64,000 nt of DNA from an uncultured Sphingomonadaceae bacterium (GCA_947501325.1 CANMVC010000003.1:37830-101829); one strand, 5' to 3'; shown: positions 1 to 53,147, counted from the first letter of the stretch. Made by a program: numbers and translations. The notes: a model not told the origin generated them from the letters alone.

Positions 1-723
1 AGCTATTAAAAATGACGCGACGATGACCCTTTCACGGCCAGCGCAAAATTTGAGCCAGATTAAACACACGATGGTAGCTATGAAACCATTTAGGTAATTT
101 TCGATGCCATCTTCTGTATATGTAAATTCTCTCTCGAATGGAAAGACAATCAACAGAGTATATAGAAATATTATAAATATAACGATTGTAAAAAAAGATA
201 TAAAAATCTTCAATGAATTCGATGACAAATGATAAACGACCGAGAAAATTAAAATCAGGACAAATACGATAAAGGTATTATGAGAAAATATCGAAAGGAG
301 CGAAAATATCGCTCCTTTCAAGTATCGCTTAGATATAATTGCTTCTATCGCTACTGCAAAAAAAACACAGGCTATACCTTGCCTCAGAATATTAGAAAAT
401 AGGAGGACACCAAATGGTGAAACGCACGCGACAAGGAAACTGGGTATTAACTTGAACGAAGATAGGCACAATATTAAGGTCATTGCGCCAAATAAGATCA
501 TTAAAAAACTATCTCTACTTGAAAATAATCCTGTGTATTTTATTATAAACCATGAAATAATTTCCTTGATATAGTAGCTCGACTGGGTGCTGATTAGGGG
601 ACTTTGCATCCAGTATCGATCAATATCCACTCCTCCACGAGCATCTCCTAAAACAAGCACGATGGTTATGCTAATAGACACAACCAACAGCCAATAGAGC
701 CTCAGACTAATAGTATAAGGCAT
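1..723 (-). CDS. EpsG-family (Wzy-type) polysaccharide polymerase, N-terminal 241 codons; 3' end lies beyond the left window edge
   Basis: Absent from the ORF track because there is no stop in the window. My own minus-strand translation from ATG (723-721) stays open to position 1: MPYTISLRLYWLLVVSISITIVLVLGDARGGVDIDRYW...LRQGIACVFFAVAIEAIISKRYLKGAIFSLLSIFSHNTFIVFVLILIF... It is a polytopic hydrophobic protein with the RQ..A...A....K....L...H.. pattern I associate with EpsG/Wzy polymerases. The start overlaps the upstream gene's stop by 22 nt. Confidence 0.5.
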   Translation of the reverse strand, partial: MPYTISLRLYWLLVVSISITIVLVLGDARGGVDIDRYWMQSPLISTQSSYYIKEIISWFIIKYTGLFSSRDSFLMILFGAMTLILCLSSFKLIPSFLVACVSPFGVLLFSNILRQGIACVFFAVAIEAIISKRYLKGAIFSLLSIFSHNTFIVFVLILIFSVVYHLSSNSLKIFISFFTIVIFIIFLYTLLIVFPFEREFTYTEDGIENYLNGFIATIVCLIWLKFCAGRERVIVASFLIA

Positions 724-1406
724 ATTGAAAATACTCCACATCCGAGGACTTTGCCAAACATGGCACTTAGGTAGAAAGCCTCTCCGTCTTTATTTCTTTC
801 AGCTTTTGCCAGAGTGGGGAAAATATAAAAATTCAATACCAGATTTCCTACCCCACTGAATAGCGTGGCGGACTGTAAAATTGTACTCTGAAACTCCGGA
901 ATACGTAGAGAAAGAATGTTGACGATAAAAACTGAAGACAGCGCAAGCAGGCTGGTAAAACTCTGTGCAAAGATCAACCAATACTTTCTGTTAATCCAAA
1001 AGCGAGATTTCATTGACGGGTCAAACAGTTTCAGTGCGGTAGCCCATCCACGCAATCCAATGCGCCCATGGGCCTCAAATTCTTTCAATGCAGAAACAAA
1101 AATATTTGACACGGCATCCATTCGCCAACTTAGGATTGCTAAAAAAAATGCAACGCCAAGCAACCCTATGATCGCGATTTGCTTAATTCCGGAAACGGTT
1201 CCGCCCAAGTCGATGTAAAGGCCTAGTAGCGGTGGAATAAGAAAGCCGTTGAAGCGATTCAAGCTATACACCTGGTTGGCCAACACGATTGCAAAAGAAT
1301 ACACGCTGCTTTTATAACCGGCAAATCTTGCGATCATTCCTATGGCTTCTATTGAACCATAGGAGATGAACATGATCACGATAATCAAGCTGATTATATC
1401 AATCAC
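702..1406 (-). CDS. DUF2837 / Amj-like polytopic membrane protein (candidate lipid-linked glycan flippase)
   Basis: 234 aa and hydrophobic. The N-terminal stretch ISYGSIEAIGMIARFAGYKSSVYSFAIVLANQVYSLNRFNGFLIPPLLGLYID resembles, from memory, the Amj/YdaH pattern (..IE.L.YS.R.AG.R......L......SR......P.LG..VD). The C-terminal QSATLFSGVGNLVLNFYIFP resembles Amj Q.SG.INGLATIL. The start overlaps the upstream stop by 8 nt, suggesting translational coupling. Confidence 0.45.
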   Translation of the reverse strand: MIDIISLIIVIMFISYGSIEAIGMIARFAGYKSSVYSFAIVLANQVYSLNRFNGFLIPPLLGLYIDLGGTVSGIKQIAIIGLLGVAFFLAILSWRMDAVSNIFVSALKEFEAHGRIGLRGWATALKLFDPSMKSRFWINRKYWLIFAQSFTSLLALSSVFIVNILSLRIPEFQSTILQSATLFSGVGNLVLNFYIFPTLAKAERNKDGEAFYLSAMFGKVLGCGVFSICLILLV

Positions 1407-2478
1407 GATCTGATTCCAAATCTAGGTAGTCTCTGATTTCAGAGTATCGAGACCTGAAATACGCCATTTGGCTGTTGTCACGGAATGTTAATCGATCAAA
1501 GGATGCTTTGCTGTTTGACAGAGAAATTGGTTCAGGAGCAAAGCTCCCACCTGTTATTACCGAGGACATATCAAGATATTTGAATCCATCGCCTGGGACG
1601 ATCGCTTTGAAGTTGGCCGGCCGGACCAGTGAAACTGGAATACCATATGCAAAACAAACAATGAAAATATGCATTGCAGTTGTTACAATCTTTTGGAATC
1701 CATGCAGCTGTTCTATGAGCAATTCAATCTCTGCGGGCGTGCGAGCATAAGGCAAAATAGTTTCAATCGGGCCCTTTAACGACGTCCATTCATCAACGTG
1801 ATTCACGTGCGGAACGAATGCGAGGTCTGATCGCATCGCTTTGGAGGGTGGGGAATAGCGAAAAGGCATGAAAAATCCTGGATCACAAGGTTGAAAAATG
1901 GGCTTTTGATCAACCTCCAATATTTTATCTTGTGATAGCAGTCCTCGGACCGAGACATAATTACTGGCATCACCAATCCTATCAGTTTGCGAATTGAATC
2001 CGGAACCCAGAACGATAGATAGCTTGTTGGCTGATGCCAAAATCGATCCAACGGATAGAAAATGAGGCTCCAATCTCTGGTCCCTGAGATGCAAATATTT
2101 TATTGGCTGATCGGTTATCTTGCTAATCAAATAGGGTGCCAACCAGTCACCAAAATTGCCTTTATACGGTAGTGCAGTCCAAGAGCACCTGATCGTTTTT
2201 TTATTGCTTACAGATTCGTAGAACTGAATGGCTTCTCCCCAACGTGCAAGATCGCCCATGCCGTGATTATACGCATGCTCAATGTCTGTCCGTCGAAAAC
2301 GGGAGCTCGTTATTCGCAGTTTGACTGCAAAGGAAGATGAGTTTCTGCTGAGCAATTTCCCCAATATTAGGTTTGCACGATAATAACAGGAGGCCAACAA
2401 ACGCAAAAACTTGGGTGATGAGAGCTTGAACGCCAAATTTTTAATATATCTTATTGTCATGCTTACATTAATCTTCAA
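1399..2478 (-). CDS. Polysaccharide pyruvyl transferase family protein (ExoV/CsaB-like)
   Basis: 359 aa. Carries the NFGDWLAPYL motif (the N-x-GD-x-L signature of PF04230-type pyruvyl transferases) followed by SVGSIL...VLGSGF. Embedded in a glycan operon. Confidence 0.7.
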   Translation of the reverse strand: MKINVSMTIRYIKNLAFKLSSPKFLRLLASCYYRANLILGKLLSRNSSSFAVKLRITSSRFRRTDIEHAYNHGMGDLARWGEAIQFYESVSNKKTIRCSWTALPYKGNFGDWLAPYLISKITDQPIKYLHLRDQRLEPHFLSVGSILASANKLSIVLGSGFNSQTDRIGDASNYVSVRGLLSQDKILEVDQKPIFQPCDPGFFMPFRYSPPSKAMRSDLAFVPHVNHVDEWTSLKGPIETILPYARTPAEIELLIEQLHGFQKIVTTAMHIFIVCFAYGIPVSLVRPANFKAIVPGDGFKYLDMSSVITGGSFAPEPISLSNSKASFDRLTFRDNSQMAYFRSRYSEIRDYLDLESDRD

Positions 2479-3601
2479 CGAGATCGCAAATCTTCATTAT
2501 TTGACTTTCTCGATCAAATCTAATGTCAGGGACCCATGGAGCTGCAATTATTTCCAAATTTGAACGCGATGACAGTTCGCGAACCAAGTCATCTGCGTCA
2601 CCTGGCGTGTACTGAATAACATTCTTGCTTTCTAATAGACCATCTATTTCGGGAGACGTCTGTGAGTTAATCATGGGACTTCCGATAAACAGATAATCAG
2701 AAAGCTTGTTTGTAATCGATTGGGCAGCCCCCGCTTTTATTGAATTCACTGACGCGTCCATTTCTGATATATGCTCTCGTAGCTCCTTATATGGAACAAA
2801 TCCGTAGAGAAAAGTGCCCTCATATCCGGCTTCCGCAATAGCTCCTTTTTCGGGGCCATCACCGAAAACATGGAATTCGAAATCCAATCCGCGCTTTCTA
2901 AGTTGTGTGACCGCAGCACAGACTGTTTTTATATCATAGCTGAACGATAGTGTCCCAAAATAGAAGAGTTTGATTGGAAATTTTTTCTTCTTGGTTTTTT
3001 CAATACTTAAATCAGATCCTAGGTAACACACATGCTTTTCTGGCGTAAGTATAACGTCTGAATAGGCTTCCAAATAGGTCTGAGAAACGCTTATCACGGA
3101 ATCAGCTTTTGAGAATATATATCCCTTCTTTTTTTGAAACGGGGCGAAGATAAATTTCATTACCGAAAATACACTGAAATTATGCCAAATAGCTTCAGGC
3201 CATAAGTCTTGAATATCTACAAAAAACTTCGCCTTTCTATTTGTCTTTGCAATATGATGACAGGGTCCGATCATCGGATAAGAAGCATATACAACATCAT
3301 ATTTGGAGAATTCCGGAAATTTTCGGCCGAAATTCTTTGAAAAGAAAAAAATATTCAAAAACCTACCAATCCCGAAGTTTCTCTTATATCGGAGGGTCTG
3401 AATCAGCGTCACCTTGAAATTCTCAGTGTCCAATTCGGAATAATTGCGCTTCCGTTTAAGTCGGTGAATAAAATCACTCGTAACCAGTTCAACACTATGG
3501 CCTCGCCGGGTTAGTTCTTCAGCGACAGCGGCAAAGCGATTTGGCAAACCATCTATCGCAAAGCTTGTATAGGGCGCGACAAGCAGTATCTCTTTTTTCA
3601 T
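2468..3601 (-). CDS. Glycosyltransferase family 4 (GT-B fold, WbuB-like)
   Basis: 377 aa. The N-terminus MKKEILLVAPYTSFAIDGLPNRFAAVAEELTRRGHSVELVT is typical of GT4. The C-terminal half has the F.G....KG / E-x7-E-like region. Confidence 0.8.
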   Translation of the reverse strand: MKKEILLVAPYTSFAIDGLPNRFAAVAEELTRRGHSVELVTSDFIHRLKRKRNYSELDTENFKVTLIQTLRYKRNFGIGRFLNIFFFSKNFGRKFPEFSKYDVVYASYPMIGPCHHIAKTNRKAKFFVDIQDLWPEAIWHNFSVFSVMKFIFAPFQKKKGYIFSKADSVISVSQTYLEAYSDVILTPEKHVCYLGSDLSIEKTKKKKFPIKLFYFGTLSFSYDIKTVCAAVTQLRKRGLDFEFHVFGDGPEKGAIAEAGYEGTFLYGFVPYKELREHISEMDASVNSIKAGAAQSITNKLSDYLFIGSPMINSQTSPEIDGLLESKNVIQYTPGDADDLVRELSSRSNLEIIAAPWVPDIRFDRESQIMKICDLVED

Positions 3602-3631
3602 ATTTTGATAGTCTTCCGGCTATTGCATAAA

Positions 3632-4762
3632 CTATTCACCGTTTAGGCAGTCGCGAATTTCCTGGATAACTTCATCTTGTTCACCATCACTCATATCGCT
3701 TCCGGAAGGAAGACAAAGGCCATTAGCAAACAATCGCTCATCTAAGCCCCTTCCCACATACAAACTTCCAGAAAAGAGCGGTTGTAAATGCATTGGCTTC
3801 CAAAGTGGGCGAGATTCAATGCCGTGCTTCAACAGATGCAGGCGAATGCAATCACGAGTTTTCCCGCTTTTAAGAGGATCAACAGTAATCGCAGTCAACC
3901 AGCGGCTGCAATGAGACCAATTAGGTTCGGGCATAAACTCGATCCCCTCTACATTGTCAAGTGCGTTACGATAGCGCGAAAAAATAGTCCGCCGACGACG
4001 AACGCGCTCGTCCAGTACGCTAAGCTGGCCCAAGCCTATCGCCGCCGCGATATTGCTCATCCGATAATTGTAGCCATAGGTTGAATGTTCATAGTGAGGG
4101 GCTAAGTCGCGAGCTTGAGTCGAAAGAAAGCGCGCACGGTCTATTGCGAGCCTGTCACGAGATACGAGCATTCCACCACCGCCGGTTGTAATCATCTTGT
4201 TTCCATTAAAGGACAAGATCGCAAAATCGCCGCCGCTGCCACATTGGCGATCTTGATATCTTGCGCCGAGCGATTCGGCACTATCAAAAATGAGTTTAAC
4301 ACCAAAATTTTGCGCCAAACCTTCTATACGGTTGATGTCGCAACTCTGCCCATACAGGTCAGTTGCTATGATTGCTTTTGGTAGGCTATTTTTGGCTGCA
4401 GCTTTTTTTAATGCATCCTCAAGCAGCTCGGGACAAATGGTCCAGCTTTCACTCGAGATGTCGAAAAAACGCGGCTGTGATTGCTCATAGAGAACAGGAA
4501 AAACCCCCCCCGCGAAAGTCATTGAGCAGACCCATACCTCGTCGTCAGCTGTTAGATCAAGTAAACGCAATGCAAGATGCAAAGCTGCCGTTCCACTGCT
4601 CACGGCCAAGCAATGGACTTGTCCTCCTACATAACCCGCCACGCTTTCTTCGAATTGATCCAGCTGAGGGCCAACTGGCGCAATATAGTTACTTTCAAAC
4701 GCTTGTCGGACGTGCTCTAGCTCGGAGCCGCCCATATGTGGTCGCGATAGATGAATGCGCAT
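3632..4762 (-). CDS. DegT/DnrJ/EryC1/StrS-family PLP-dependent nucleotide-sugar aminotransferase (PglE/WecE-like)
   Basis: 376 aa. N-terminal SELEHVRQAFESNYIAPVGPQLDQFE, and SFNGNKMITTGGGGMLV containing the conserved PLP-binding lysine context. Confidence 0.85.
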   Translation of the reverse strand: MRIHLSRPHMGGSELEHVRQAFESNYIAPVGPQLDQFEESVAGYVGGQVHCLAVSSGTAALHLALRLLDLTADDEVWVCSMTFAGGVFPVLYEQSQPRFFDISSESWTICPELLEDALKKAAAKNSLPKAIIATDLYGQSCDINRIEGLAQNFGVKLIFDSAESLGARYQDRQCGSGGDFAILSFNGNKMITTGGGGMLVSRDRLAIDRARFLSTQARDLAPHYEHSTYGYNYRMSNIAAAIGLGQLSVLDERVRRRRTIFSRYRNALDNVEGIEFMPEPNWSHCSRWLTAITVDPLKSGKTRDCIRLHLLKHGIESRPLWKPMHLQPLFSGSLYVGRGLDERLFANGLCLPSGSDMSDGEQDEVIQEIRDCLNGE

Positions 4763-4780
4763 AAGCCGACTTTCAAGAAA

Positions 4781-5452
4781 CTAGGATTTGTTGAAAATAA
4801 GGAACATGTGTGACTTATCTTCCGGCACTTGGTACACTCTGCATTTCGCATTCTGCGCATCGGCTATGCGTTGAATTTCAGCGAAAGCAGTTTGCTTCGA
4901 GGAGTTTACTTGCCAAAGGCCGCTTCCTGGAGTCTTGCCAGAGAGTTTTCCAAGCCTTTTTTTGAGGAACAGCGGCAATGGAATTGTGATCGTTTTGTAG
5001 GGACGAGAAGTCACCCTCGACGAGAAATAGATCCGAAAGTCATCTACCGGTATACTGATTACCGCACAAGAGCGAGCCACATGGATGCACTGGCTGATAA
5101 TATTCTCGAATTCGGTGAAAGGTATATGGTGAAGGACGCGCGCGCACAGCACAACGTCCCAGGAAGACGCATCAAACTTTTGATCAAGTTCAGTCACATC
5201 TCCTACAAAATCCGGCTGAAGCTCTTCGTTGAGATCAAGGGTTGCCACTTCCACACCAAGATTCTTCAGGTAGGAAGATACCAAGCCTGTGCCCTTGCCA
5301 ATTTCCAACACTCGCCGCGGGGCTGAAGCCAGCACCTCATCTATCTGATGCCAGTAGGTTAATAGTCGAGTTTTGCTATTGTAGTTTTTGAACGAATAAT
5401 AGGCCGATTTCAACTTACTATATTTGTGCGCATACTCTTCTTCTTTATTCAT
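4781..5452 (-). CDS. Class I SAM-dependent methyltransferase
   Basis: 223 aa. Motif I VLEIGKGTGLVSSYL followed by the acidic TLDLN and VLCARVLHHI (motif II/III-like). The start overlaps the ATP-grasp stop. Confidence 0.7.
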   Translation of the reverse strand: MNKEEEYAHKYSKLKSAYYSFKNYNSKTRLLTYWHQIDEVLASAPRRVLEIGKGTGLVSSYLKNLGVEVATLDLNEELQPDFVGDVTELDQKFDASSWDVVLCARVLHHIPFTEFENIISQCIHVARSCAVISIPVDDFRIYFSSRVTSRPYKTITIPLPLFLKKRLGKLSGKTPGSGLWQVNSSKQTAFAEIQRIADAQNAKCRVYQVPEDKSHMFLIFNKS

Positions 5453-6443
5453 GAGAACTACTTTCAGTTGGATTCACCCGAGTAATCACCTCGGCATCGT
5501 ACCTCAGCATCATCAAGTTAGGCTCCCAGTCAGAGTGGGGATTCTTAATGGGTTTGCCTAACAAATACTCGTCTATTAGCCAAGATGGATAGTCTGCGCC
5601 TGCCAGCCTTGTCAGAGGATAGCCGCCTCCAAAGCGAGCGTTAATTTCTATACAAGAGCTTTGGCTATTGAACTTGTTCACAAATAGCTGCAGCGTCAGA
5701 ACACCTTGATACCCATCTATCTTGCTCAACTTTTCAGCCAGCTCAGATACAAAATGAGCCTTGCATGTTATCGCCTTGCTAACTTCCCCGCCCCTAACTT
5801 CCAAACGCTTCCGTGGGACAAAACAGATAAGATCTCCATCGTGATTATAATAAAGATCGCAAGTAAACTCATCATGCTCTGAAGGGTCCAAGTATTGACA
5901 GAACATATTTCGATCATTGGCTATAAGTTCATCGACTATAGCTGACTTAGAATCCAGAATATGCAGCCCTTCGCTTGACGACCCATCAAAGGGTTTAACG
6001 ATAACAGGATATTTAATCTCTTCGTGAGAATAAATATCAGGAACATTTATATCCCTCTCGAGAAAAAAGGCTGCGGTTAGTCGTTTATCGCCAAACGTAT
6101 GAACAAGATCAGCCTGACTGACCAAGAGCTTTATTCCATTGGCCTCAAACCGAGGTCTCGCCTTAGCCAAAAGTTGCAAACCTGTATCTATAGTTGGTAT
6201 AACAAGCCCTATATCGCGCTCTTTGCATTCTTTCAGAAGCAATTCAAAAAAGTTAGATGCGCTAATTGGCGGTAGTTTGAAATTGTTTTTTGTACTGGCG
6301 CAAACGGCGCTCAATTCTGGCCTCGTATCGGCCGCGAAAGCATCAATGCCATACTCCATCCCCGCCTTCACGAATGCGCTAAATAGAGATACGCGTCTGC
6401 CAGCGGAAAGAAGGAGTACATTCTTATACTTTTGTTTTTCCAT
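5445..6443 (-). CDS. ATP-grasp domain carboxylate-amine ligase
   Basis: The track ORF runs 5445..6491. I prefer the internal ATG at 6443 (MEKQKYKNVLLLSAGRRV...), which lies 1 nt after the upstream stop. YPVIVKPFDGSSSEGLHIL and the later E.N.RFGGGYP are typical ATP-grasp elements. Confidence 0.75.
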   Translation of the reverse strand: MEKQKYKNVLLLSAGRRVSLFSAFVKAGMEYGIDAFAADTRPELSAVCASTKNNFKLPPISASNFFELLLKECKERDIGLVIPTIDTGLQLLAKARPRFEANGIKLLVSQADLVHTFGDKRLTAAFFLERDINVPDIYSHEEIKYPVIVKPFDGSSSEGLHILDSKSAIVDELIANDRNMFCQYLDPSEHDEFTCDLYYNHDGDLICFVPRKRLEVRGGEVSKAITCKAHFVSELAEKLSKIDGYQGVLTLQLFVNKFNSQSSCIEINARFGGGYPLTRLAGADYPSWLIDEYLLGKPIKNPHSDWEPNLMMLRYDAEVITRVNPTESSSHE

Positions 6444-6444
6444 A

Positions 6445-7029
6445 CTAACCTTTGAATCGCTTGCTAATTTCTGAGTCCATTGCGCCAACATCTTTATGCT
6501 GGAGTGTGGAGATAGCCGTCAAAGCCAATATCTTCAAATCGAGCAACAAGCTTTGGTTTTTCACATACCAAACGTCCATCTCGAATCTTTTCTCCCAGCT
6601 TATTTTATTCCGGCCATTGATCTGAGCCCATCCTGTCAGTCCTGGAGGCACATCAAGTCGTAGCGCTTGTTCAGGCGAATAAAGACCGACATAATCCATC
6701 AGCAATGGCCTTGGGCCGACGAAGTTCATTTCACCCTTCAAAATGTTAAATAACTCAGGCAGCTCATCGAGATTACTTCGTCTCAAAAATCTGCCAAAAC
6801 TGGTGAGGCGCTGCGATGATGGCAGCAAACTGCCCGCCTCATCTAACTCGTTTGTCATTGTCCTGAACTTTATTATTGTGAATGGACGTCCATTACGGCC
6901 GGCGCGTTCTTGAAAGAAAAAGACCGGCGTACCCAGTTTCACGCGAACCATTATCGCGACAACACAACAAATCAAAATCAGAAGTGGCGCCAACCCGATA
7001 GCCAAAATTAAATTTAGTAATCTATTCAT
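6445..7029 (-). CDS. Small monotopic phosphoglycosyl transferase (bacterial sugar transferase, PglC-like) priming enzyme
   Basis: 194 aa with one N-terminal hydrophobic helix. Motifs FFFQERAGRNGRPFTIIKFRTM, LDELPELFNILKGEMNFVGPRP and PGLTGWAQ are hallmark PF02397 elements. Confidence 0.85.
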   Translation of the reverse strand: MNRLLNLILAIGLAPLLILICCVVAIMVRVKLGTPVFFFQERAGRNGRPFTIIKFRTMTNELDEAGSLLPSSQRLTSFGRFLRRSNLDELPELFNILKGEMNFVGPRPLLMDYVGLYSPEQALRLDVPPGLTGWAQINGRNKISWEKRFEMDVWYVKNQSLLLDLKILALTAISTLQHKDVGAMDSEISKRFKG

Positions 7030-7042
7030 GGAAGATTTTTCT

Positions 7043-7330
7043 TTATTCTAAATACTCTCGATTATCAGTATATATTGCCCACATTTGGGCGATCAGATCG
7101 GTCGATTGAAGCTGAATTACGTGTCTGTCAATCGTAGAATGATAAGCTAGGAAAACTATTGTACGGTTCAAGTCTATATCTAGAGATCGGATCCTAATGT
7201 CAGGGTCAAAATCGATAAACCCGAATTTGTTTTGAATCATGCCTGAAGGCCGGACAATTGCTTGTGAACGCTGAGACCTTCTTATCATCGCTATGTTCTG
7301 TGAGGCAAAGCATGGGGTAAAATGGTCCAA
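7043..7330 (-). CDS. Hypothetical small protein (doubtful)
   Basis: 95-aa ORF in the gap between the unknown 392-aa gene and the priming transferase. No recognisable motif and no clear ribosome-binding site. Confidence 0.2.
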   Translation of the reverse strand: MDHFTPCFASQNIAMIRRSQRSQAIVRPSGMIQNKFGFIDFDPDIRIRSLDIDLNRTIVFLAYHSTIDRHVIQLQSTDLIAQMWAIYTDNREYLE

Positions 7331-7499
7331 AATGTTAAAGTAATTTTTGCTTAGAGTGGCATTAGCTCGGCGTTGGGGAGCTCAAATTATCTATGGGGGC
7401 TATTTGAAGAGCTATCTTAAAATATCTCAGTAAAGTTAAAAACATTTGGCAGCATCAATCGGCATTGCGGATAGCTTTTGTACTAGCTTGATGATCAAA

Positions 7500-8678
7500 C
7501 TATCTAATTGACAAATTTTCAAATTTGAGATCAAAATCTCCATCGTTGCTTTCTGCTTCAGCAACGATATCCAACCAAAAAAAGCGGCAATCAAGATTGG
7601 GATTGATGATCTCTCGGCGAATTTCCGGCCCTTCAAATGGTATCCGTGCAGATAAATTATTTTTCTTATTGCTTTCTGCACAGTAAATACGAAGCGATAG
7701 CTTATCTCCAGCCTGCAAAGGAGTTGCAAGCTTTCCAGTTAATTGAAGGCGGCCACGATCCGCAGGCAGTTCGATCAATTGCCTCGCAAATACACCGCCA
7801 GAACCTTTGACAGCATTGAGCCATAACGCTCCCGATTCAATCACCGCTCCAAATTCTCCATTTGAGAATAATTGCCAGTCAAAGGGGGGGTATTTGGAGT
7901 TTTGGTCAAAGTCGGGGTTTCTTACTAGCTCTAGACTGTCCTGTGCTTGAGCGAAAATGCGGTATAAATTTCGAGCATCAATAAAACTGCCGTTTTTGAT
8001 CAGTGCTTGCAAAAGTTGTTCGTCATGGTTCTGAGTTGATTTTCCTGGTCCAGTACCAAGTTTTGTGCGCAGAATTGCTCCATTAACCAACGAGGGAGGG
8101 GTTCTAACCAGTTGCCGCCAAAACCGACCAGCCCATGGAGGATCAGTGTTGAGCATTTTAAACATCGGTTCGATAAAATCTGGTATTGCCATGGCTCTCG
8201 CCATAGCTGGGATGAATTGCTGACCAGACTTTGGTTCTGTACGCAGCGAGATATCATAGAAATTTAGGAGCGCAGCAACGTCATTCCTGCGGGCACTATC
8301 CGTGATCATCCATCCGGTAACTATTTGCTGACGGCGCGACAGTTCAAACGCTTGCTCCATTAGATCATGACGAACACCGCCGGACTTCGCTAAAGCGATA
8401 ACTGCAATAGCACCGGGAGTTATAGGCTCTGCTGTAAATGCCCGGATAGCTAAGTCATATGTTCTTGGTTCAATAGCTGATGGAAATTGATTCTGATTTT
8501 CTTGTATCGCATTCTGAGTTAACTGGATCGCTATCTCGTTCTCAGAAAAGCCGTTTACTGGTTGCAATGAGATCGCAAGACTAGGAGCTTTGTTCTTGGT
8601 AACTGCACCCAAAGCAGTTACGCCGGATATCGCCGCGATTGCTATTGCGAAAGCCCATATCGCGAGGTTTTTGATCAT
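7500..8678 (-). CDS. Hypothetical N-terminally anchored protein, helical N-domain plus beta-sandwich-like C-domain; function unknown
   Basis: 392 aa. Has an N-terminal hydrophobic anchor (MIKNLAIWAFAIAIAAISGVTALGA). It starts 19 nt downstream of the wzc stop on the same strand. I recognise no family motif. The C-terminal third (FDWQLFSNGEFGAVIESGALWLNAVKGSGGVFARQLIELP...LSLRIYCAES) looks like a jelly-roll or carbohydrate-binding module. Confidence 0.6.
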   Translation of the reverse strand: MIKNLAIWAFAIAIAAISGVTALGAVTKNKAPSLAISLQPVNGFSENEIAIQLTQNAIQENQNQFPSAIEPRTYDLAIRAFTAEPITPGAIAVIALAKSGGVRHDLMEQAFELSRRQQIVTGWMITDSARRNDVAALLNFYDISLRTEPKSGQQFIPAMARAMAIPDFIEPMFKMLNTDPPWAGRFWRQLVRTPPSLVNGAILRTKLGTGPGKSTQNHDEQLLQALIKNGSFIDARNLYRIFAQAQDSLELVRNPDFDQNSKYPPFDWQLFSNGEFGAVIESGALWLNAVKGSGGVFARQLIELPADRGRLQLTGKLATPLQAGDKLSLRIYCAESNKKNNLSARIPFEGPEIRREIINPNLDCRFFWLDIVAEAESNDGDFDLKFENLSIR

Positions 8679-8696
8679 GGTTTCATACCTCGACCA

Positions 8697-10898
8697 CTAT
8701 TCCGCGATAGCAGCTTTTTGTCCATAGCTATACTGATATGCATAGCCGTAGCCATAACCGGAATGTTGCGGCCGAATCTTGGTAACGATTCCCCCAAATA
8801 TATGCCCATTCGAGCTTTTTATACGCTGTAACGCAGATTGAATGCCGCGAAGCTTAACGCCGCCGGCCTCAATCGTATATATTACGCCTTCTACTGAATC
8901 GGCGAGGAGAGGGATGTCCGCAAGGCCTAAAACCGGTGGCGCATCAACAATTACTGAATCATATCTGCTACTTAATTGCTCAATTAGTTCTCGCATTCTG
9001 TTACTACTGAGAAGTTCTGCAGCATTTGGCGGTATCGGGCCAGCAGACATGGAATCAAATCCAAAGGCATTGTCTTTATTTATCAACCGATCGAGATCGT
9101 TATCGCCCGCAAGGAAATTGCTGAGGCCAGAACGGTTTTCAATCTCCAGCATTTGGTGCAAAGACGGGTTGCGCATGTCACCATCGATCAGCAGTATGCG
9201 TTTTTTTGAACTAGCAAGAACCGCTGCAAGTGCGAACGCCGACGTACTTTTTCCTTCATTTGGACGCGTGCTCGTTAGGAGAAAAGACCGAGGCAAGCCG
9301 TGATCGGTAAGAAATGCAAGGCTTGTGCGTAACGAGAGATAAGCCTCCCAAGCCACCGATTTCTTGTCATTCAAGCTCAGCAAGATATCTTCTTTGTCGA
9401 AATCCGGAATAGAGCCCAATGGTGCAATGCCCAATTTTGATTTTAAATCGGCAGGATCCTTAACCGTTTGATCAATTTGCTCCATAATGAACACAAAAGC
9501 GGCTGCCAAGCCGATACCGGCAATAAACGCCAACGCAATATTCAATATGATTTTTGGGCTAGAGGGGGTCGTCGATGGCTCTGCTTTATCGACAACTGAA
9601 ATATTGTTCGCACCAACACCAGCGACGCCGATTTCTTTGTATCGCTGCAAAAGACCGTCGTACAGTTGCCTGTTGGTATCCACTTCGCGCTGGAAGATAT
9701 TGTACTGGATAGAATCGCGCCGTTCCCCACTGAACTGCCCCTTAAGCGTCGCCACCTGGGCCGCTAACTGCTTTTCCTTTTCTAGCGCCGCTTCATAGCG
9801 AGCTAATGTTCCAGTTCGGGAACGCAATTCTTCAGCTGCTATGCTCTTATCCAAGGCCATAATCTGCGAAGTCAATCCCTTCGCTGTTGGATATTCGGGT
9901 TCAAACTGCACCATAAGCCGAGCATACTCCGCTTGTATCTTGGCGCGCTCTTCGCGAAGACGGTTCAGCGCCCCGTTGTCCAATGCATTTTTGTTGCCAG
10001 AACGCAGCCTCGCTTCGCTCTCTGCTGAAATGCGATCGGCTGTAGCTTGTGCCAATGCAAGATTTAGTGCTTCCAGATTGGCGGATGCCAAGGTTTTTTG
10101 TGCTACCGTTTTGCCGCTGGCGGTCTGCTCTGAAGAAAGTGTAATAATCTCTTTATTGTCAGCATAAGCAGAAAGATTGCGTTCTGAGTCCTCGAGCCGC
10201 TGCTTAAGGTCAGCGAGTTGCTCTTCCAGAAACTTTCGAGCATCCGCCGTTGAATTAAAACGCCGGTCAAGGTTCGAAGCAATAAATTGTTCGACCCAGG
10301 CGTTTGTTACCTGAGCAGACAATACTCGGTTGGGGCTCTGGAAGCTAATTTCAACCAAGCTTGAACCACGAATAGGAGAAATGGAAACGTGATCTAGCAG
10401 GAGATCGGTTGCAATTCTAAGTCGCCTTTTGCGTTCGGCGGCTGTTTGAACAGTCGATGCATCCGACAAGATACTCGCGTTGCTTGGATTTTCACCGAAC
10501 ATTTCGAAAAATTCATCGTTCGACGCTAAATCCCGCGCTCTCACGACCCTTTCGGCTAAGGAGCGGGCTTCCAAAAGGGAGTATTGTGTCTGGTAGAATT
10601 CTAAATTTTGACCGGCGCTATCCGAACCAGTTACGCCTTCTACGTTGGTTACCTTGTCCTGTTCGCGATTAATCTCAACCGTAGACGTTGACGTATAGAA
10701 TGGTGTCATAAGTAGGGTTGTTATAATGCCCAGAGCTACGCAGACGGCCATAATAATGGCGATAGCCATGCGATGGCGTAAAACCGCCTGCCAATACTCA
10801 ACTAATATGGGCGTTTCATGAGCAAAATCTTCATAGGGATGAGGATCGGCAACGCGATTCACGGGTTCATTGTCGTCCAAATGGTGGTCTTGTGTCAT
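8697..10898 (-). CDS. wzc: Polysaccharide co-polymerase / BY tyrosine autokinase (Wzc/ExoP/GumC-type, PCP-2a)
   Basis: 733 aa. Has an N-terminal Wzz-like region with long coiled-coil periplasmic segments and a second TM. The C-terminal kinase carries Walker A TSTRPNEGKSTSAFALA, Walker A'/B (LLIDGDMRNP, VIVDAPP) and a Tyr-rich tail HSGYGYGYAYQYSYG. Confidence 0.9.
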   Translation of the reverse strand: MTQDHHLDDNEPVNRVADPHPYEDFAHETPILVEYWQAVLRHRMAIAIIMAVCVALGIITTLLMTPFYTSTSTVEINREQDKVTNVEGVTGSDSAGQNLEFYQTQYSLLEARSLAERVVRARDLASNDEFFEMFGENPSNASILSDASTVQTAAERKRRLRIATDLLLDHVSISPIRGSSLVEISFQSPNRVLSAQVTNAWVEQFIASNLDRRFNSTADARKFLEEQLADLKQRLEDSERNLSAYADNKEIITLSSEQTASGKTVAQKTLASANLEALNLALAQATADRISAESEARLRSGNKNALDNGALNRLREERAKIQAEYARLMVQFEPEYPTAKGLTSQIMALDKSIAAEELRSRTGTLARYEAALEKEKQLAAQVATLKGQFSGERRDSIQYNIFQREVDTNRQLYDGLLQRYKEIGVAGVGANNISVVDKAEPSTTPSSPKIILNIALAFIAGIGLAAAFVFIMEQIDQTVKDPADLKSKLGIAPLGSIPDFDKEDILLSLNDKKSVAWEAYLSLRTSLAFLTDHGLPRSFLLTSTRPNEGKSTSAFALAAVLASSKKRILLIDGDMRNPSLHQMLEIENRSGLSNFLAGDNDLDRLINKDNAFGFDSMSAGPIPPNAAELLSSNRMRELIEQLSSRYDSVIVDAPPVLGLADIPLLADSVEGVIYTIEAGGVKLRGIQSALQRIKSSNGHIFGGIVTKIRPQHSGYGYGYAYQYSYGQKAAIAE

Positions 10899-10900
10899 TA

Positions 10901-11608
10901 TTATCTAAACAATATGATTAGTGGGGTGGAAAGCAGAGGAGAAGCCTGTATCACATCTCTAAATATCCGGCGAGCTTGCGAATCTCCGACTACTATTACG
11001 TCATTTGCAAAAACTTCAGGATCAGCATAGCTGCCACGACGGATGGATTTCAGATTGTAAAGTCCAGCAAGCTGATCACCATTTACTGTACGAAAAATGA
11101 CAACATCATTGAGCTTAGCGTACTCTGTTGTGCCGCCGGCTGTTGCGACCGCCCGCATTAATGTCATTCTACCGATAACGGGGTAAAGGCCTGGCTTGTC
11201 TACCTGACCGTCGACTGTGATCACTTGGCTTACAGTTTCCTCAAGGTTTACGGTGACTTCAGGATTACGCACATAGCGGCCCTGCAGCCGCTGCTCCAGT
11301 TCTCCTGCGAGCTCACCTGGAGTAAGGCCCGCAGCTTCAACAACGCCGATCAATGGGAAAGAGAGCCTGCCGCTTGCGTCGATCTGAACTTCTTTGCTCA
11401 AATCTTCGATCCCGAATACATCAATTTTCAGTTTATCAAACGGACCAATCAAATAAGCGCGATTGGAGCTTAGCAAATCGACGCGCGTCGGTTCTGGCAA
11501 TCCTTCGCTTGAAACAACGGATACATCGGGGCTTCCTCCCAGGACAGCCGGACCCCCGCAAGCGGATAGAAACAGCATCGGCAGTAACATGTATAAAAAT
11601 TTCAACAT
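10901..11608 (-). CDS. wza: Outer-membrane polysaccharide export lipoprotein (Wza/ExoF/GumB-type OPX)
   Basis: 235 aa. Lipobox LFLSAC-GG. YLIGPFDKLKIDVFG (Poly_export motif) followed by an SLBB-like VTVDGQVDKPGLYPV. Confidence 0.85.
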   Translation of the reverse strand: MLKFLYMLLPMLFLSACGGPAVLGGSPDVSVVSSEGLPEPTRVDLLSSNRAYLIGPFDKLKIDVFGIEDLSKEVQIDASGRLSFPLIGVVEAAGLTPGELAGELEQRLQGRYVRNPEVTVNLEETVSQVITVDGQVDKPGLYPVIGRMTLMRAVATAGGTTEYAKLNDVVIFRTVNGDQLAGLYNLKSIRRGSYADPEVFANDVIVVGDSQARRIFRDVIQASPLLSTPLIILFR

Positions 11609-11714: not shown

Positions 11715-13181
11715 TTAAGAGTCCTGCATTGCATTTCGCTTAACGCTGCGCACGCTATCGCCTAAAATACATGCAAAAATCAAAAAAACCGTGATTATTG
11801 ATGGGACGCGTAGAGGATAGTCTCCGATGCTTCCAGCTAGGAAAAAAAGCATGACTATAGCGGCCATCAACCCAGTGTATTTCGTATATCGAGACAAACG
11901 CCAATATCTGGCCAAATTGGCCAACTGTGCGATAAACCAAATCGCTGCAACTAAACCGATTGATACAGCGGGTGCTCCGCCTTCGATTGAGAATTGTAAC
12001 CAGTCATTATGGGCTTGATTCAGATAAGTAGGGTTCAATAATTCCTTTGGCTCGTAAATTTTGTAAACGTGTTCAAATGTCCCGAACCCGCTTCCCCAAG
12101 GGAAATAATCATGAAGCATTGTTTGCAGGATTGGCAAAAGCTGTAAGCGCAGTTCGCCAATCACATTTCCACCAAAAAGCCGATCAAAAGCAAATGAACG
12201 CGAAAAATATACAGACAAAGCTCCGGTCGTGACGACTGTTGCTATGCTCCCTAGTAATACCAAATTGCGAGAGGAAATAAATTGTGCCTTTCGTTTTGCG
12301 TTCGCTACTTTGTTACGTCGGATTTCGTCGCTATAACGCCCAAAGTAGATAAATAGCATCGCTGCAAGCAGACCCGGAGCCATTAGCAAAAGCCCTGCCC
12401 GCGATCCGGTTACGAAAATGAGCGGCACAATAACAAAAATCGTCGCTATGCCGCCATAAAATTTCAACGTTGCCAACTTTTCCGTTGGCCGGAGGAAAGC
12501 CACATACCAACCAATCATAACAATCGTCGAAGCCAGAATAATCGCTTGATGATTCCGGTTTGCAAACAGACCAACGCCACCACCGAAATTGGTAATCCTG
12601 TACAAATAGAGCGGTCCTCGCGATGAACCGGCTAACTGAAACACTGCCAATAGCGCACTTATCAGACAGAGTCCCATGACTACAATTATTGCCTCTTTCC
12701 TGCGCGCTTCACTCAGGTTGAGGTAAAGCAGCATTGCAGCCAACGGCACTGAGAGCGAAAATAGGCTGTTTAAGGTTCGCGAAGGTGAAAGAGTTAGCGG
12801 CCGCCAAGGTTGTTCAATACCGGCAGTATTCGCGATAGTTGCAAACATCTCGCGGCTTGGAAGCTCGACCCATATTGATGGAGGGAGGGGGATGAGTTGC
12901 AATAGCATCAGAAGCAGTATTGCAAACACAATGTAGACCGAGAAAGTGCGGCCTTTCAAATGTTCGGGGCGCATGCACGTCAGAGCGTAGGCACAGAACA
13001 ACACGGCCAGCGGACGCAAAATCACCAATGACTGGACGTCATCGCGCGAGCCGCCACCTGTAAAAAAAACCAAAGTCAGAAATGCAACAAAAGCGTAGAA
13101 GCACAAACTTGGGTGATCTATTCTTTTTAAAATCTGATTTAACCGGTTACGTCGCGTGTCTATCATTCTAGAATCAACCAC
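11715..13181 (-). CDS. O-antigen ligase / Wzy_C-family polytopic membrane protein (ExoQ-like)
   Basis: 488 aa with at least 10 hydrophobic segments. FANRNHQAIILAS and later AHNDWLQFSIEGG are typical of the Wzy_C/O-antigen ligase domain. It is the first gene of the minus-strand operon. The start is GTG 13181 or ATG 13166. Confidence 0.75.
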   Translation of the reverse strand: MVDSRMIDTRRNRLNQILKRIDHPSLCFYAFVAFLTLVFFTGGGSRDDVQSLVILRPLAVLFCAYALTCMRPEHLKGRTFSVYIVFAILLLMLLQLIPLPPSIWVELPSREMFATIANTAGIEQPWRPLTLSPSRTLNSLFSLSVPLAAMLLYLNLSEARRKEAIIVVMGLCLISALLAVFQLAGSSRGPLYLYRITNFGGGVGLFANRNHQAIILASTIVMIGWYVAFLRPTEKLATLKFYGGIATIFVIVPLIFVTGSRAGLLLMAPGLLAAMLFIYFGRYSDEIRRNKVANAKRKAQFISSRNLVLLGSIATVVTTGALSVYFSRSFAFDRLFGGNVIGELRLQLLPILQTMLHDYFPWGSGFGTFEHVYKIYEPKELLNPTYLNQAHNDWLQFSIEGGAPAVSIGLVAAIWFIAQLANLARYWRLSRYTKYTGLMAAIVMLFFLAGSIGDYPLRVPSIITVFLIFACILGDSVRSVKRNAMQDS

Positions 13182-13778: not shown

Positions 13779-15638
13779 TTGAGCGAGGATGAACAATTGT
13801 CTTTTTATCAAGATGGCTTGACTCGACGTGGCTTGATGGGCGGACTAACTGTTGCTTTCCAGCTATTTTTATCAAAATCAGGATTAGCAACGACAAGTCC
13901 CGGTTTTGACAAAAACAGGCACTCAAATATCAAAGAACTCTCAAAAGCTGCTAGAGGCGATCTGGTGACCATTCTGTCGGATCCCTTGCGGGGAGGATTG
14001 TTCAGTTTCGATCCGTCCAACCGACGAGAGGATGTCGCCGCCGATCCGCGCAGGGCGATGTTTGTAGCTCCTGAAGGAGAAGACGGAACTAACGGTGCCT
14101 TCTATCGCCAGCACGATCTGATCATTCACGTTAAATGGTTTGGTGTTACCGGCGACGGCGTGACCGATGATTCCCTGCCTTTTCAAGACGCGATCAATTA
14201 TGTTGCTCACCAAGGTGGCGGTGTATTGGTTTACGAAGGCACACCTTTAATCGGTGATCTGGTGGTTCAAACAGATTTTATCGATATCGTCGGCGCAACA
14301 AGAAGCTCATATCTCTTGGTTAAGGACGGCACTACCGGCATTACGTTTGATGCCAAATGGATAGGTCTACAAAAAACCCGGTTTGTTTCACAGGGCACCG
14401 AGAATGATGGGAATGGCACAAGTGCTGTGAAATTTTCTCGTGGAGCCAATTCCTCCAGCCATATCAATATTCAAGACATATATATTGACGGGTTTTCGGG
14501 CGTTGGGATTTCAGTCACGAATTCTGTTCATTTTTCCGGAAATTTCGCAACAATTCGAAACTGCGGTCGGGGAGTGGCACACTTCCCCGCGGGTGATACC
14601 AAGGCAGCTTTTGGAACAACCTTCAATCTAACAAACTTCTATTTCTCATCTTGCGCGACCGGCCTTTATGCTGAAGATTTGAAAGATGCTTTTCTTCTGG
14701 GCTGCACCGAGGAATTCTGCGATATTGGTATTGAAGCGGTACGGTCATCTATCACCGACTTTCATGGCTATCGTGAAGCCAATAAAATTAAAGGCATTCG
14801 GTCTATCGATAGTCAACTGAGGGTCCTCTTTCCGCGCGTAAAGCCAGGTCAAGGAAGCTCCCAATCTCAAAATGAACAGGAAACTATTTGGACCCTGGGC
14901 GTCCTTGATGCTTCGAGGCGCGGCTATACCAGCCTGAAAGACAATATTTATACTGGCAAGGGTTTCGAGCTTTTGTCTCGATTCGGTGTTGATCCCCAAG
15001 TTATTAAAGCAATTGGCGATACTGATAATGTTGGTGTGTCCTACGGTGACACAGCAATAGCAATGATACGCGGCGAAAACCTGCTGAAACCAGAAGACTG
15101 GGTTTCGAATAGGACCAGTGAATTCAAGGGCTGGGATGTTTCTGCCGCCGGTTACAGGATCGACAGCGAAACATTGACCGGTGCATGCGGGTTAAAACAA
15201 AAAGTAAAGTTGTTGGCAGGAAAACAGTATATTATCGACTTCCATGCATCTCTTTTTCGCGGCCGGGCTATTAGTCAAATAAAAATCGGAAAATATTTTG
15301 CGAAGCCTGGGAAACTGTTTACGGTTCCTACCGATGGAAACTATATGGTTAAGGCTTTTGGCATCCAGCCAGCAGGCGGCTTCAATAGCATAATCCATGT
15401 TGTTAAAATGTATCAAGTCGAAGCGAAAAAGGAGCATGTTTCTGATGCTGCCGATATACTTTCGCGCAACAAAGATGGTCGTGGAAAGATTTTTATGTCC
15501 AAACCCCCAACATCCGGCAGCTGGGCAGTTGGCGAAACTGTGATCAATAATTTAGCAACGACGGATCAATGGGACAAATGGAGATGCGTGGTTGCTGGTT
15601 CACCAGGAATATGGAAAGGCTACGGTGCGAGAGAATAA
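13779..15638 (+). CDS. Tat-signal right-handed beta-helix glycoside hydrolase/lyase (pectate-lyase-superfamily, tailspike-like)
   Basis: 619 aa with a TTG start. Twin-arginine motif TRRGLMGGL. VKWFGVTGDGVTDDSLPFQDAINYV is the Pectate_lyase_3-type N-terminal signature. The C-terminal GSWAVGETVINN...WDKWRCVVAGSPGIWKGYG resembles the conserved tail of such beta-helix proteins. Transcribed divergently from the glycan operon. Confidence 0.75.
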   Translation: MSEDEQLSFYQDGLTRRGLMGGLTVAFQLFLSKSGLATTSPGFDKNRHSNIKELSKAARGDLVTILSDPLRGGLFSFDPSNRREDVAADPRRAMFVAPEGEDGTNGAFYRQHDLIIHVKWFGVTGDGVTDDSLPFQDAINYVAHQGGGVLVYEGTPLIGDLVVQTDFIDIVGATRSSYLLVKDGTTGITFDAKWIGLQKTRFVSQGTENDGNGTSAVKFSRGANSSSHINIQDIYIDGFSGVGISVTNSVHFSGNFATIRNCGRGVAHFPAGDTKAAFGTTFNLTNFYFSSCATGLYAEDLKDAFLLGCTEEFCDIGIEAVRSSITDFHGYREANKIKGIRSIDSQLRVLFPRVKPGQGSSQSQNEQETIWTLGVLDASRRGYTSLKDNIYTGKGFELLSRFGVDPQVIKAIGDTDNVGVSYGDTAIAMIRGENLLKPEDWVSNRTSEFKGWDVSAAGYRIDSETLTGACGLKQKVKLLAGKQYIIDFHASLFRGRAISQIKIGKYFAKPGKLFTVPTDGNYMVKAFGIQPAGGFNSIIHVVKMYQVEAKKEHVSDAADILSRNKDGRGKIFMSKPPTSGSWAVGETVINNLATTDQWDKWRCVVAGSPGIWKGYGARE

Positions 15639-16130: not shown

Positions 16131-16892
16131 TTATAGGTTATCACACACTCTCTCAAACGCCCGTTTTCCTTTTCGTCGCCAAAGTAATCGCACTTTATCC
16201 CCGCGCTTGCTTTGCAGCAACTCGGCCATGCGCAGGAACGCCCCGAACATCATCGCCCGATCATCATCGGTGAGTTCCACCAGTCCAGCCTTCTGCACGA
16301 GTCCGCCCAGTTCGATCAGACGCCGCGTTCGTTCCCTACGCCGCATCACCCAGTCTCTCTTGTCGGTGCGGCGCTGACGGGCTTCAATTCGGTGCACCAT
16401 CGCCTGTGTCCGCGTGATTATCGGGACCAGTACATCCCGTATGACCGGTCCTTCAATATCATTGACTAGCCGATCGCCGATTTTGGGAAAGACATGCTTT
16501 TCCAGCGTCGTTATCCATTGCTTTTGGTGCTTGCCACTCTTCCACGCCAAACGGTATTCCGCATGAACGTGTTTCGCAGCGTCCCTAAAGGTCGGTATGA
16601 CCAGCGTTGCTTTTTTACGTTCTGCAATAGGATCAAGACCGTTTTGAATATCTTTTCGAATCAGATAGGCTGCTTCACGGGCTTCGGCCAATGACATAAG
16701 ACTGAGTGAGCCAAGACCAATATCACGACGCCGTCCGTTAATCTGACAGCGAATAATCCAATATCCTTTACCAGAATCGCCAATTCTCAAATACAGCCCA
16801 TCACCATCTCCATATTTTCCGGGTTCTTTGAGCTTACGAATTTTGGTTGTCGTCAACTTTCCCATTTCATCATCTTTCCATATTTGTCCCAC
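16131..16892 (-). pseudogene. Chimeric ORF: N-terminal arm/core-binding part of a P4-type tyrosine integrase fused to a TraD-like conjugal-transfer fragment; catalytic domain absent
   Basis: Residues about 10-160 (LTTTKIRKLKEPGKYGDGDGLYLRI...GRRRDIGLGS...SLAEAREAA...) match the DUF4102 arm-binding plus SAM-like region of tRNA-associated integrases. Residues about 175-253 (RRRERTRRLIELGGLVQKAGLVELTDDDRAMMFGAFL) match the small TraD of rhizobial conjugation systems. No R-H-R-Y catalytic domain is present. Composition turns visibly GC-richer at about 16400. Confidence 0.7.
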
Positions 16893-17019: not shown

Positions 17020-17109
17020 TGGAGGACACGGAGGGATTCGAACCCTCGAAGCCCGTAAAGGCTTGTCTCCTTAGCAAGGAGGTGGTTTCAGCCGCTCACC
17101 CACGTGTCC
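17020..17109 (-). tRNA. tRNA-Ser (anticodon GCU)
   Basis: Hand-folded. Acceptor GGACACG/CGTGTCC, U8 G9, 3-bp D stem GGT/ACC, anticodon stem CCTCC/GGAGA with loop TTGCTAA, long variable arm CAAGCCTTTACGGGCTTC, T arm GAGGG-TTCGAAT-CCCTC, and an encoded CCA. The discriminator is U, which is unusual for Ser. Confidence 0.85.
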
Positions 17110-50951: not shown

Positions 50952-51040
50952 GCGGTCGTGGCGGAATTGGTAGACGCGCAGCGTTGAGGTCGCTGTGGGG
51001 TTAATACCCCGTGGAAGTTCGAGTCTTCTCGACCGCACCA
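50952..51040 (+). tRNA. tRNA-Leu (anticodon GAG)
   Basis: Hand-folded. Acceptor GCGGTCG/CGACCGC, D arm GCG..CGC, anticodon stem CAGCG/CGCTG with loop TTGAGGT, long variable arm, T arm GGAAG-TTCGAGT-CTTCT, discriminator A, and an encoded CCA. Confidence 0.85.
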
Positions 51041-51267
51041 GTATTTACTTTTGAAATCTTTAGCGACAGCAACGGGGCGCAATGGCTCTGCGGCCGCCCG
51101 CAACCATATCACTTATCTTCAGACCGGACATTGGACTGGCAAAGCTCCGCCAGGTTAACGCCTTGGGCGCTAAGTGTCTAAATTTGTTACGCTGTTGTAT
51201 AGTATCGCGCGCAGTTTATGATAGTCTGATAAGGCGCTGCCAGAACCAAGTAACAAGGACTCACCCG

Positions 51268-51780: not shown

Positions 51781-51812
51781 TGGTGGACTCAACTGATTTT
51801 GGAAATTTTTAA

Positions 51813-53045: not shown

Positions 53046-53122
53046 TGGCGGAGGCTGAATCGGCTTGCTATATAAGTTCATTAGCGTTCAATCGTTCAGC
53101 TAGCCAAAACTTGATACTCGTT

Positions 53123-53147
53123 GCCTTCGATAACTAGTTTCGAAGGC
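53123..53147 (+). terminator. Perfect 8-bp hairpin after the GT4 gene (no U-tract)
   Basis: GCCTTCGA-taactagtt-TCGAAGGC, 78 nt after the stop. The lack of a T-run makes intrinsic termination uncertain. Confidence 0.3.

Follow-up and report, generated by a model that had tools for sequence, protein, structure and literature searches.

In Campylobacter, the PglF-PglE-PglD-PglC pathway furnishes undecaprenyl diphosphate-linked N,N'-diacetylbacillosamine (Und-PP-diNAcBac), a priming sugar built on 2,4-diamino-2,4,6-trideoxyhexose. In Neisseria, PglB2, an ATP-grasp/phosphoglycosyl transferase, is behind the formation of a glyceramido-acetamido-trideoxyhexose (GATDH) instead of diNAcBac (PMC11130364, a review; PMC6959607). 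A further system is described in Bacillus cereus ATCC 14579, the Pat/Pyl pathway to uridine diphosphate (UDP)-yelosamine. There, the ATP-grasp enzyme Pyl is reported to couple 2-oxoglutarate to a UDP-4-amino sugar, provided by a DegT-type aminotransferase, at its 4-amino group, and the genes adjoin that of a small phosphoglycosyl transferase (PMC8987622, PMC11626204). Here we compare with these systems four genes, read from position 7029 to 3632 on the minus strand of a 64,000-nucleotide (nt) stretch of DNA from an uncultured Sphingomonadaceae bacterium (GCA_947501325.1, CANMVC010000003.1:37830-101829; hereafter the window, meaning this stretch at its full length). They encode, in this order, a PglC-type small transferase, an ATP-grasp ligase, a methyltransferase dependent on S-adenosylmethionine (SAM) and a DegT aminotransferase. 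We consider it likely that the four genes serve sugar priming within a Wzx/Wzy-type polysaccharide locus that was acquired horizontally, and that they are a split variant of the Neisseria PglB2 system. A PglB2-type module, split or fused, is known; new is that the hydrolase of the haloacid dehalogenase (HAD) family is absent from its slot in the module and a methyltransferase is there instead.

The window shares both catalytic modules of PglB2 at full length. In pairwise BLASTP the transferase is 47% identical to residues 1-198 of N. meningitidis PglB2 (E 4e-62) while the ATP-grasp protein matches residues 206-524 with 44% identity over an alignment of 321 residues (E 8e-92), and the boundary between the two genes coincides with the boundary between the two PglB2 domains. 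When the transferase and ATP-grasp sequences were concatenated and run against 5.8 billion proteins, the top matches after the window's own protein were natural two-domain fusions, which are numerous. The second-best non-self match was the N. meningitidis PglB2 cluster itself (490 bits, 44% identity, 98% of the query; cluster P0122, 525 residues, 570 members, source name "protein Pglb2 [Neisseria meningitidis]"). The same NCBIfam model, NF009405 (PRK12767.1-4), is the best one for the window ATP-grasp (321.7 bits) and for the C-terminal domain of PglB2 (373.1 bits), while the next-best model scores only about 130-170 bits. Both proteins miss the curated cut-off of 390, which is thus stricter than the PglB2 clade. 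Across 14 members of the ATP-grasp family, the window protein included, 47 columns are invariant, and because the window enzyme keeps all near-invariant family residues it is probably active. The nearest solved ATP-grasp structure is 2PN1 (E 9e-21). The transferase finds its best match in the Protein Data Bank (PDB) in C. concisus PglC (8G1N, E 1.4e-52; the alignment spans residues 3-193). By sequence and gene context, we assign the window ATP-grasp to the PglB2-like family. The earlier note on this DNA, written from the sequence alone, had described PglB2 as a transferase fused to an ATP-grasp domain and connected with a glyceramido sugar, which agrees with the literature (PMC11130364), and the analogy that it drew is borne out at the level of homology.

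The four genes are tightly packed as one operon, and all of them were found where the earlier note had placed them. The transferase gene ends with TAG at 6447-6445, followed by a lone T at 6444 and the ATG of the ATP-grasp gene at 6443-6441, so that the spacing of 1 nt given before is exact. The ATP-grasp stop codon is overlapped by 8 nt by the methyltransferase gene, which starts with an ATG at 5452, and 18 nt separate the methyltransferase from the DegT gene. For the ATP-grasp we prefer the 332-residue form because the N-termini of its homologues line up with the ATG at 6443; a longer open reading frame (ORF) of 348 residues, starting at 6491 in the mechanical ORF list, was rejected on the same grounds. 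A scan of 3500-7600 for promoters and terminators gave counts at chance level.

That transferase and ATP-grasp are encoded by two genes is a difference from the fused Neisseria PglB2, but one that is shared by Neisseria alleles and by most other genomes. The PglB2 cluster also holds stand-alone ATP-grasp members of 333 residues, which occur on at least 1000 N. meningitidis contigs, and the two genes are separate in most of the 80 GTDB genomes surveyed below, where fused forms are also common. A split pglB2 has been reported as functional in Neisseria (PMC4569582), and Vibrio vulnificus is described with pglBa/pglBb (PMC10644004). The split state is therefore ordinary and not the distinguishing feature of this module: the description as a split PglB2-like module stands, but its splitness is not the peculiarity for which it had been taken.

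The peculiarity lies in the third gene. We surveyed 80 GTDB genomes that carry a PglB2-type ATP-grasp and sought the neighbouring genes by tblastn. The usual setting consists of a small transferase upstream, with DegT and a PglF-like dehydratase nearby. Directly after the ATP-grasp, 71 of the 80 loci contain a HAD hydrolase, and in two more (L075, L076) one glycosyltransferase gene lies between them. The HAD gene is located at 9565-10251 in L001/L002 and just downstream of about 10950 in L003-L082. In Neisseria the corresponding gene is the "ORF8 / conserved hypothetical protein", a HAD-family hydrolase of 228 residues whose start overlaps the pglB2 stop. This constancy suggests that the HAD enzyme has a direct role in glyceramido formation, for example by dephosphorylating an acyl group derived from phosphoglycerate or by supplying glycerate. 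By tblastn, no HAD homologue was found anywhere in the 64-kb window, and relatives of the window methyltransferase were found in none of the 80 ATP-grasp loci (best E 0.07). The methyltransferase hence occupies the slot of the family's regular third partner. The earlier note had seen ATP-grasp and methyltransferase in the place of an acetyltransferase; the lack of a PglD-type gene is confirmed for the ORFs scanned, but the HAD as regular partner had been missed, and its replacement by the methyltransferase is the real peculiarity.

The converse search started from the methyltransferase. A word-indexed search gave 29 relatives and a metagenome scan added more; after removal of duplicates we obtained 24 non-redundant loci in which a relative (at least 32% identity) has an ATP-grasp gene within about 1 kb, nearly always together with a small transferase. 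Only one of the 24, L090, has a HAD gene. There, at 7387-10173, a transferase-methyltransferase pair and an ATP-grasp-HAD pair are convergent in one locus, and the two partners are therefore not strictly exclusive. The ATP-grasp is PglB2-like in 10 of the 24 loci, including the window, L083/L084 and L085/L086; L083/L084 reproduce the gene order of the window and even the 1-nt spacer between transferase and ATP-grasp. The other 14 contain a different ATP-grasp of 393-399 residues, about 25% identical to the window enzyme and lacking a solved relative. These longer proteins (L087, 10657-11838; L089, 1325-2524; L091, 4311-5510; and 11 metagenome loci) match only "hypothetical" NCBIfam models, usually with a small transferase and DegT, and probably mark another uncharacterised sugar N-acylation system. 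Wherever the contig is of sufficient length for a judgement, methyltransferase relatives of at least 40% identity directly adjoin an ATP-grasp and/or a small transferase, while for the distant members L112-L114 (about 33% identity) no ATP-grasp lies nearby. The lineage is associated with glycans in general, and the subfamily of close relatives goes with the ATP-grasp/transferase module. Some distant family members are tandem methyltransferase pairs. A strong claim of rarity was abandoned, as the word search yielded 29 relatives but a profile search 667; the family is uncommon, not tiny.

The methyltransferase itself reads LEIGKGTGL at motif I. Among 27 family members there is no variation at E50, G52, G54, D73 and D99, nor at the two histidines H109 and H215, so that the GxGxG motif for SAM and the acidic positions that bind ribose and adenine in class I enzymes, which have a Rossmann-like fold, are present. 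Its AlphaFold (AF2) model has the methyltransferase fold at a predicted local distance difference test score (pLDDT) of 89.5, and Foldseek matches the model with a probability of 1.00 to many methyltransferases bound to SAM or S-adenosylhomocysteine. A prediction of the methyl acceptor from this confident model was rejected, since the neighbours mix O-, N- and C-methyltransferases.

A neighbour-joining tree groups the ATP-grasp enzymes of the window, L083 and L085, all partnered with a methyltransferase in the window gene order, as one clade within the PglB2-like family; the sister group of this clade comprises alphaproteobacterial enzymes partnered with HAD. The nearest relatives in the GTDB scan belong to metagenome-assembled genomes of alphaproteobacteria and Parvularculaceae, none of them above 50% identity. 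A single column separates the window clade (K, Q or G; K52 in the window) from the HAD-partnered ATP-grasps (Asp in 97%). We rejected K52 as a marker of a changed substrate, because other methyltransferase-partnered PglB2-like ATP-grasps keep the Asp.

The DegT protein of the window finds its best PDB matches in C. jejuni PglE (1O61/4ZTC, E 9e-85, 288 bits) and scores 327.6 bits with the LegC family TIGR04181, below the cut-off of 420; to the Neisseria aminotransferase it is only 29% identical. PglE and PglC are thereby the closest solved relatives of the window enzymes, and both systems would prime with a 2,4-diamino-2,4,6-trideoxyhexose. Unlike Campylobacter, the window has the ATP-grasp and the methyltransferase instead of a PglD-type hexapeptide acetyltransferase and is without a PglF-like dehydratase. 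No PglD/NeuD-type N-acetyltransferase was found among the ORFs scanned in the 64-kb window. Its only hexapeptide protein, at 51082-51780, was a candidate for an overlooked PglD but was rejected: it is CysE/EpsC/WcaB-like and reaches 57 bits against the NeuD/PglB cut-off of 160.8. With Neisseria, the window shares the DegT gene in the cluster and a related glycosyltransferase next to it, and both systems are expected to replace the N4-acetyl group of bacillosamine by another acyl group at the expense of ATP. The B. cereus Pyl enzyme, to which we liken the window ATP-grasp by description only, provides an independent precedent for an ATP-grasp acylating a UDP-4-amino sugar; the available parts of the Pat/Pyl descriptions mention no methyltransferase.

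From these comparisons we infer every catalytic step, together with the acid and the methyl acceptor, of the following pathway. A dehydratase encoded outside the window would convert UDP-N-acetylglucosamine (UDP-GlcNAc) into UDP-4-keto-6-deoxy-GlcNAc, which the PglE-like DegT enzyme is predicted to aminate at C4 to give the UDP-4-amino-4,6-dideoxy-N-acetylhexosamine. In place of the acetyl-CoA-dependent PglD step, the ATP-grasp would activate a carboxylic acid as the acyl phosphate and join it to the 4-amino group. The methyltransferase would then methylate the nucleotide sugar, most likely at its acyl substituent. In a 2-acetamido-4-acylamido-2,4,6-trideoxyhexose, O3 is by our reasoning the only free ring hydroxyl and the usual attachment point of the next sugar, and ring methylation is disfavoured for this reason. 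The likely product is an Und-PP-linked 2-acetamido-4-acylamido-trideoxyhexose that carries a methyl group and primes a Wzy-dependent polysaccharide, in which a PglH-like family 4 glycosyltransferase (GT4) and later enzymes would extend it. The priming sugar is probably a new methylated variant. As for the acyl donor and the methyl acceptor, the earlier note had cautioned that neither can be predicted from the sequence, and this caution is upheld.

Which acid is transferred, and what is methylated, can be read in more than one way. The ATP-grasp may install the same glyceroyl group as in Neisseria, and the methyltransferase may O-methylate a hydroxyl of it to give an O-methyl-glyceramido sugar, with glycerate supplied by general metabolism or by a phosphatase whose gene lies elsewhere. 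The 44% identity to PglB2 extends over the whole domain, the best NCBIfam model is shared, the sister clade is HAD-partnered, and L090 demonstrates that HAD, ATP-grasp and methyltransferase can coexist in one locus. The invariant H109 and H215 fit as well, given that O-methyltransferases often have invariant His residues. However, 44% identity does not fix the substrate specificity of an ATP-grasp ligase, and if the glyceroyl group cannot be made or completed without the HAD, the absence of the HAD from the window and from 23 of the 24 methyltransferase loci would be odd, so that we regard this route as possible but rather doubtful. It is likewise only a tentative thought that the acid is a different one, namely one that bears, besides the carboxylate to be ligated, a further anionic or amino group (a dicarboxylic acid, a keto acid or an amino acid, for instance), and that the methyltransferase caps this further group as a methyl ester or N-methyl group in parallel to the removal of a phosphate by the HAD. 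HAD and methyltransferase are almost mutually exclusive partners, and the methyltransferase family also pairs with the 393-399-residue ATP-grasp, which argues for a shared chemical feature and not for glycerate specifically. Moreover, acidic groups are the targets of several top-ranking structural neighbours, such as ChlM (carboxyl) and DhpI (phosphonate), at template modelling (TM) scores of about 0.6, and Pyl is reported to ligate the dicarboxylate 2-oxoglutarate to a UDP-4-amino sugar (PMC8987622). Against this, N- and C-methyltransferases are found among the structural neighbours too, and the argument is entirely one of analogy. We know of no described glycan with a methyl-capped N-acyl bacillosamine.

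Two further explanations take one of the enzymes out of the pathway. The methyltransferase might act elsewhere, with a different residue of the repeat unit or the end of the chain as its site of O-methylation, and be connected with the module by genetic linkage only. At the profile level the family has 667 representatives, and some of them are fused to GT4 or family 2 glycosyltransferases (GT2), which one would expect of glycan O-methyltransferases; the distant members L112-L114 do occur without a nearby ATP-grasp. Yet in all contigs of sufficient length the relatives of at least 40% identity adjoin an ATP-grasp and/or a small transferase, across varied arrangements, two ATP-grasp families and differing surrounding genes, and in the window there is an 8-nt overlap between the gene and the ATP-grasp stop; we judge this explanation improbable. 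That the ATP-grasp has nothing to do with sugar modification, being a peptide or metabolite ligase that is in the locus by chance, seems to us very hard to believe. Its NCBIfam label reads only "carbamoyl phosphate synthase-like protein", at a score under the cut-off, but PglB2 and numerous other natural fusions join it to a PglC-type transferase. In addition, DegT, dehydratase and transferase are its companions throughout the 80 genomes surveyed, and in Neisseria the pglB2 allele determines the glyceramido sugar (PMC11130364, PMC4569582). Its relatives occur together with small transferases, DegT and PglF-like dehydratases in these genomes, and the clustering with D-Ala-D-Ala ligases or glutathione synthetase-like enzymes apart from any glycan locus, which the earlier note had named as fatal to its proposal, was not observed.

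Several points weigh against our assignment of the four genes to a PglB2-like priming pathway with a methylated acyl group. A tblastn search with the Neisseria dehydratase gave no 4,6-dehydratase homologue in the 64-kb window (best E 0.3), and the pathway as encoded there is therefore incomplete; the gene may lie outside, the locus being cut at the left edge of the window. The exchange of Asp for K52 is not common to other methyltransferase-partnered ATP-grasps. The Foldseek neighbours of the methyltransferase are mixed at TM scores of about 0.5-0.6 (ChlM, DhpI, glycine and phosphatidylethanolamine N-methyltransferases, C-methyltransferases) and do not resolve the type of acceptor. The exhaustive profile search, which counted its representatives at E<=1e-30, uncovered a wider methyltransferase family that includes the fusions to GT4 and GT2 (P0324, P0381, P0344, P0397), and this breadth is as compatible with a general glycan O-methyltransferase as with an enzyme specific for the acyl group. 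Finally, we found no paper in which a member of this ATP-grasp family was reconstituted, the function in Neisseria resting on genetics and mass spectrometry, and none that links an ATP-grasp with glyceroyl.

The surroundings of the operon are those of a polysaccharide locus (Table 1), which differs from the protein-glycosylation locus of Neisseria in its Wza/Wzc/Wzy genes and in that the dehydratase is not adjacent. The GT4 that follows the operon shares 31-36% identity with the GT4 whose gene directly precedes pglB2 in loci of Neisseria, N. weixii and Glaesserella. The module may be accompanied in its spread by a glycosyltransferase for the acylated priming sugar. On the other side, a gap of 470 nt separates the transferase gene from that of a conserved 392-residue protein. 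The latter is 42% identical to a 392-residue protein beside the Wzc gene in L083 (19457-20635) and may be an unrecognised component of alphaproteobacterial polysaccharide export clusters. At the edge of the locus, a divergent gene with a TTG start (13779-15638, plus strand) encodes a 619-residue protein with a pectate-lyase-like beta-helix domain, which may be an enzyme that modifies or degrades polysaccharide.

Table 1. Features of the window in the operon, the polysaccharide locus and the second low-GC islet (positions from the first letter of the window).
Feature	Position	Strand	Details
EpsG-family (Wzy-like polymerase) gene, 5' part	1-700	-	open frame off left window edge; Pfam EpsG 40.4 bits
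Multi-pass membrane protein	702-1406	-	hydrophobic; no Pfam or NCBIfam match
Polysaccharide pyruvyl-transferase-like protein (weak assignment)	1399-2478	-	PS_pyruv_trans 27.1 bits, cut-off 25.3
GT4 glycosyltransferase, probably for second sugar	2468-3601	-	Glyco_trans_1_4, Glyco_transf_4
DegT aminotransferase, pyridoxal phosphate-dependent, PglE/LegC-like	3632-4762	-	376 residues; DegT_DnrJ_EryC1 E 1e-87
Class I SAM-dependent methyltransferase	4781-5452	-	223 residues; Methyltransf_11/23/25 above cut-off
Stand-alone ATP-grasp ligase	5445-6443	-	332 residues; PylC-like_N, ATPgrasp_Ter, ATP-grasp_3 domains
PglC-type small monotopic phosphoglycosyl transferase	6445-7029	-	194 residues; Pfam Bac_transf E 2.6e-58; first gene of operon
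Conserved 392-residue protein	7500-8678	-	N-terminal hydrophobic segment; no Pfam/NCBIfam match; adjoins Wzc-like gene
Wzc-type polysaccharide co-polymerase / tyrosine autokinase	8697-10898	-	Wzz, GNVR, AAA_31
Wza-type outer-membrane polysaccharide export protein	10901-11608	-	Poly_export, SLBB
Wzy_C / O-antigen-ligase-like membrane protein	11715-13181	-	Wzy_C 47.5 bits
Integrase remnant	16131-16892	-	253-residue ORF; Arm-DNA-bind_3, Phage_int_M, TraD fragments
tRNA-Ser(gct)	17020-17109	-	ARAGORN
CysE/EpsC/WcaB-like hexapeptide O-acetyltransferase	51082-51780		second islet
EpsE-like GT4	51813-53045		second islet
TupA-like ATP-grasp	53213-54250		second islet

The GC content is 0.40-0.48 over 1-16 kb, compared to 0.50-0.59 for most of the remainder. 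The polysaccharide block is probably an acquired island because the low-GC part ends at the integrase remnant and tRNA-Ser(gct), beyond which core genes of higher GC content follow (ribE, ribD, gltX, nadE); the segment 16131-17109 resembles the scar that a genomic island targeting a tRNA gene leaves behind. A second low-GC islet (GC 0.47) is located at 50952-54438, between tRNA-Leu(gag) and tRNA-Ser(gga). Words of the window were faintly matched (5-6%) in metagenomes of macroalgae and seawater, which, like the alphaproteobacterial and Parvularculaceae relatives, indicates an alphaproteobacterium of marine origin.

In summary, the survey defines a second, rarer form of the PglB2-type module in which a dedicated methyltransferase stands in place of the HAD hydrolase, and the window operon is a compact four-gene example of it. 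How antigenic a bacterial surface glycan is depends on the N-acyl groups that its first sugar bears; the swap from pglB to pglB2 in meningococci changes the pilin glycan and has been linked to immune escape. The near-exclusive alternation of HAD and methyltransferase suggests that they may be alternative steps by which the acyl group is finished, the HAD removing a phosphate and the methyltransferase capping a hydroxyl or carboxyl group. One may speculate, although we would not give it better than a modest chance, that both finish one and the same ATP-grasp chemistry on an acid with a second charged group, so that phosphoglycerate is attached and then dephosphorylated in the one form, while in the other the extra group is methyl-capped to an as yet undescribed methylated N-acyl bacillosamine. 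The near-constant HAD partner suggests a role for Neisseria ORF8 and a source of the glyceroyl group. If this speculation is true, the dephosphorylation of phosphoglycerate by the HAD enzyme would explain both ORF8 and the origin of the glyceramido sugar.

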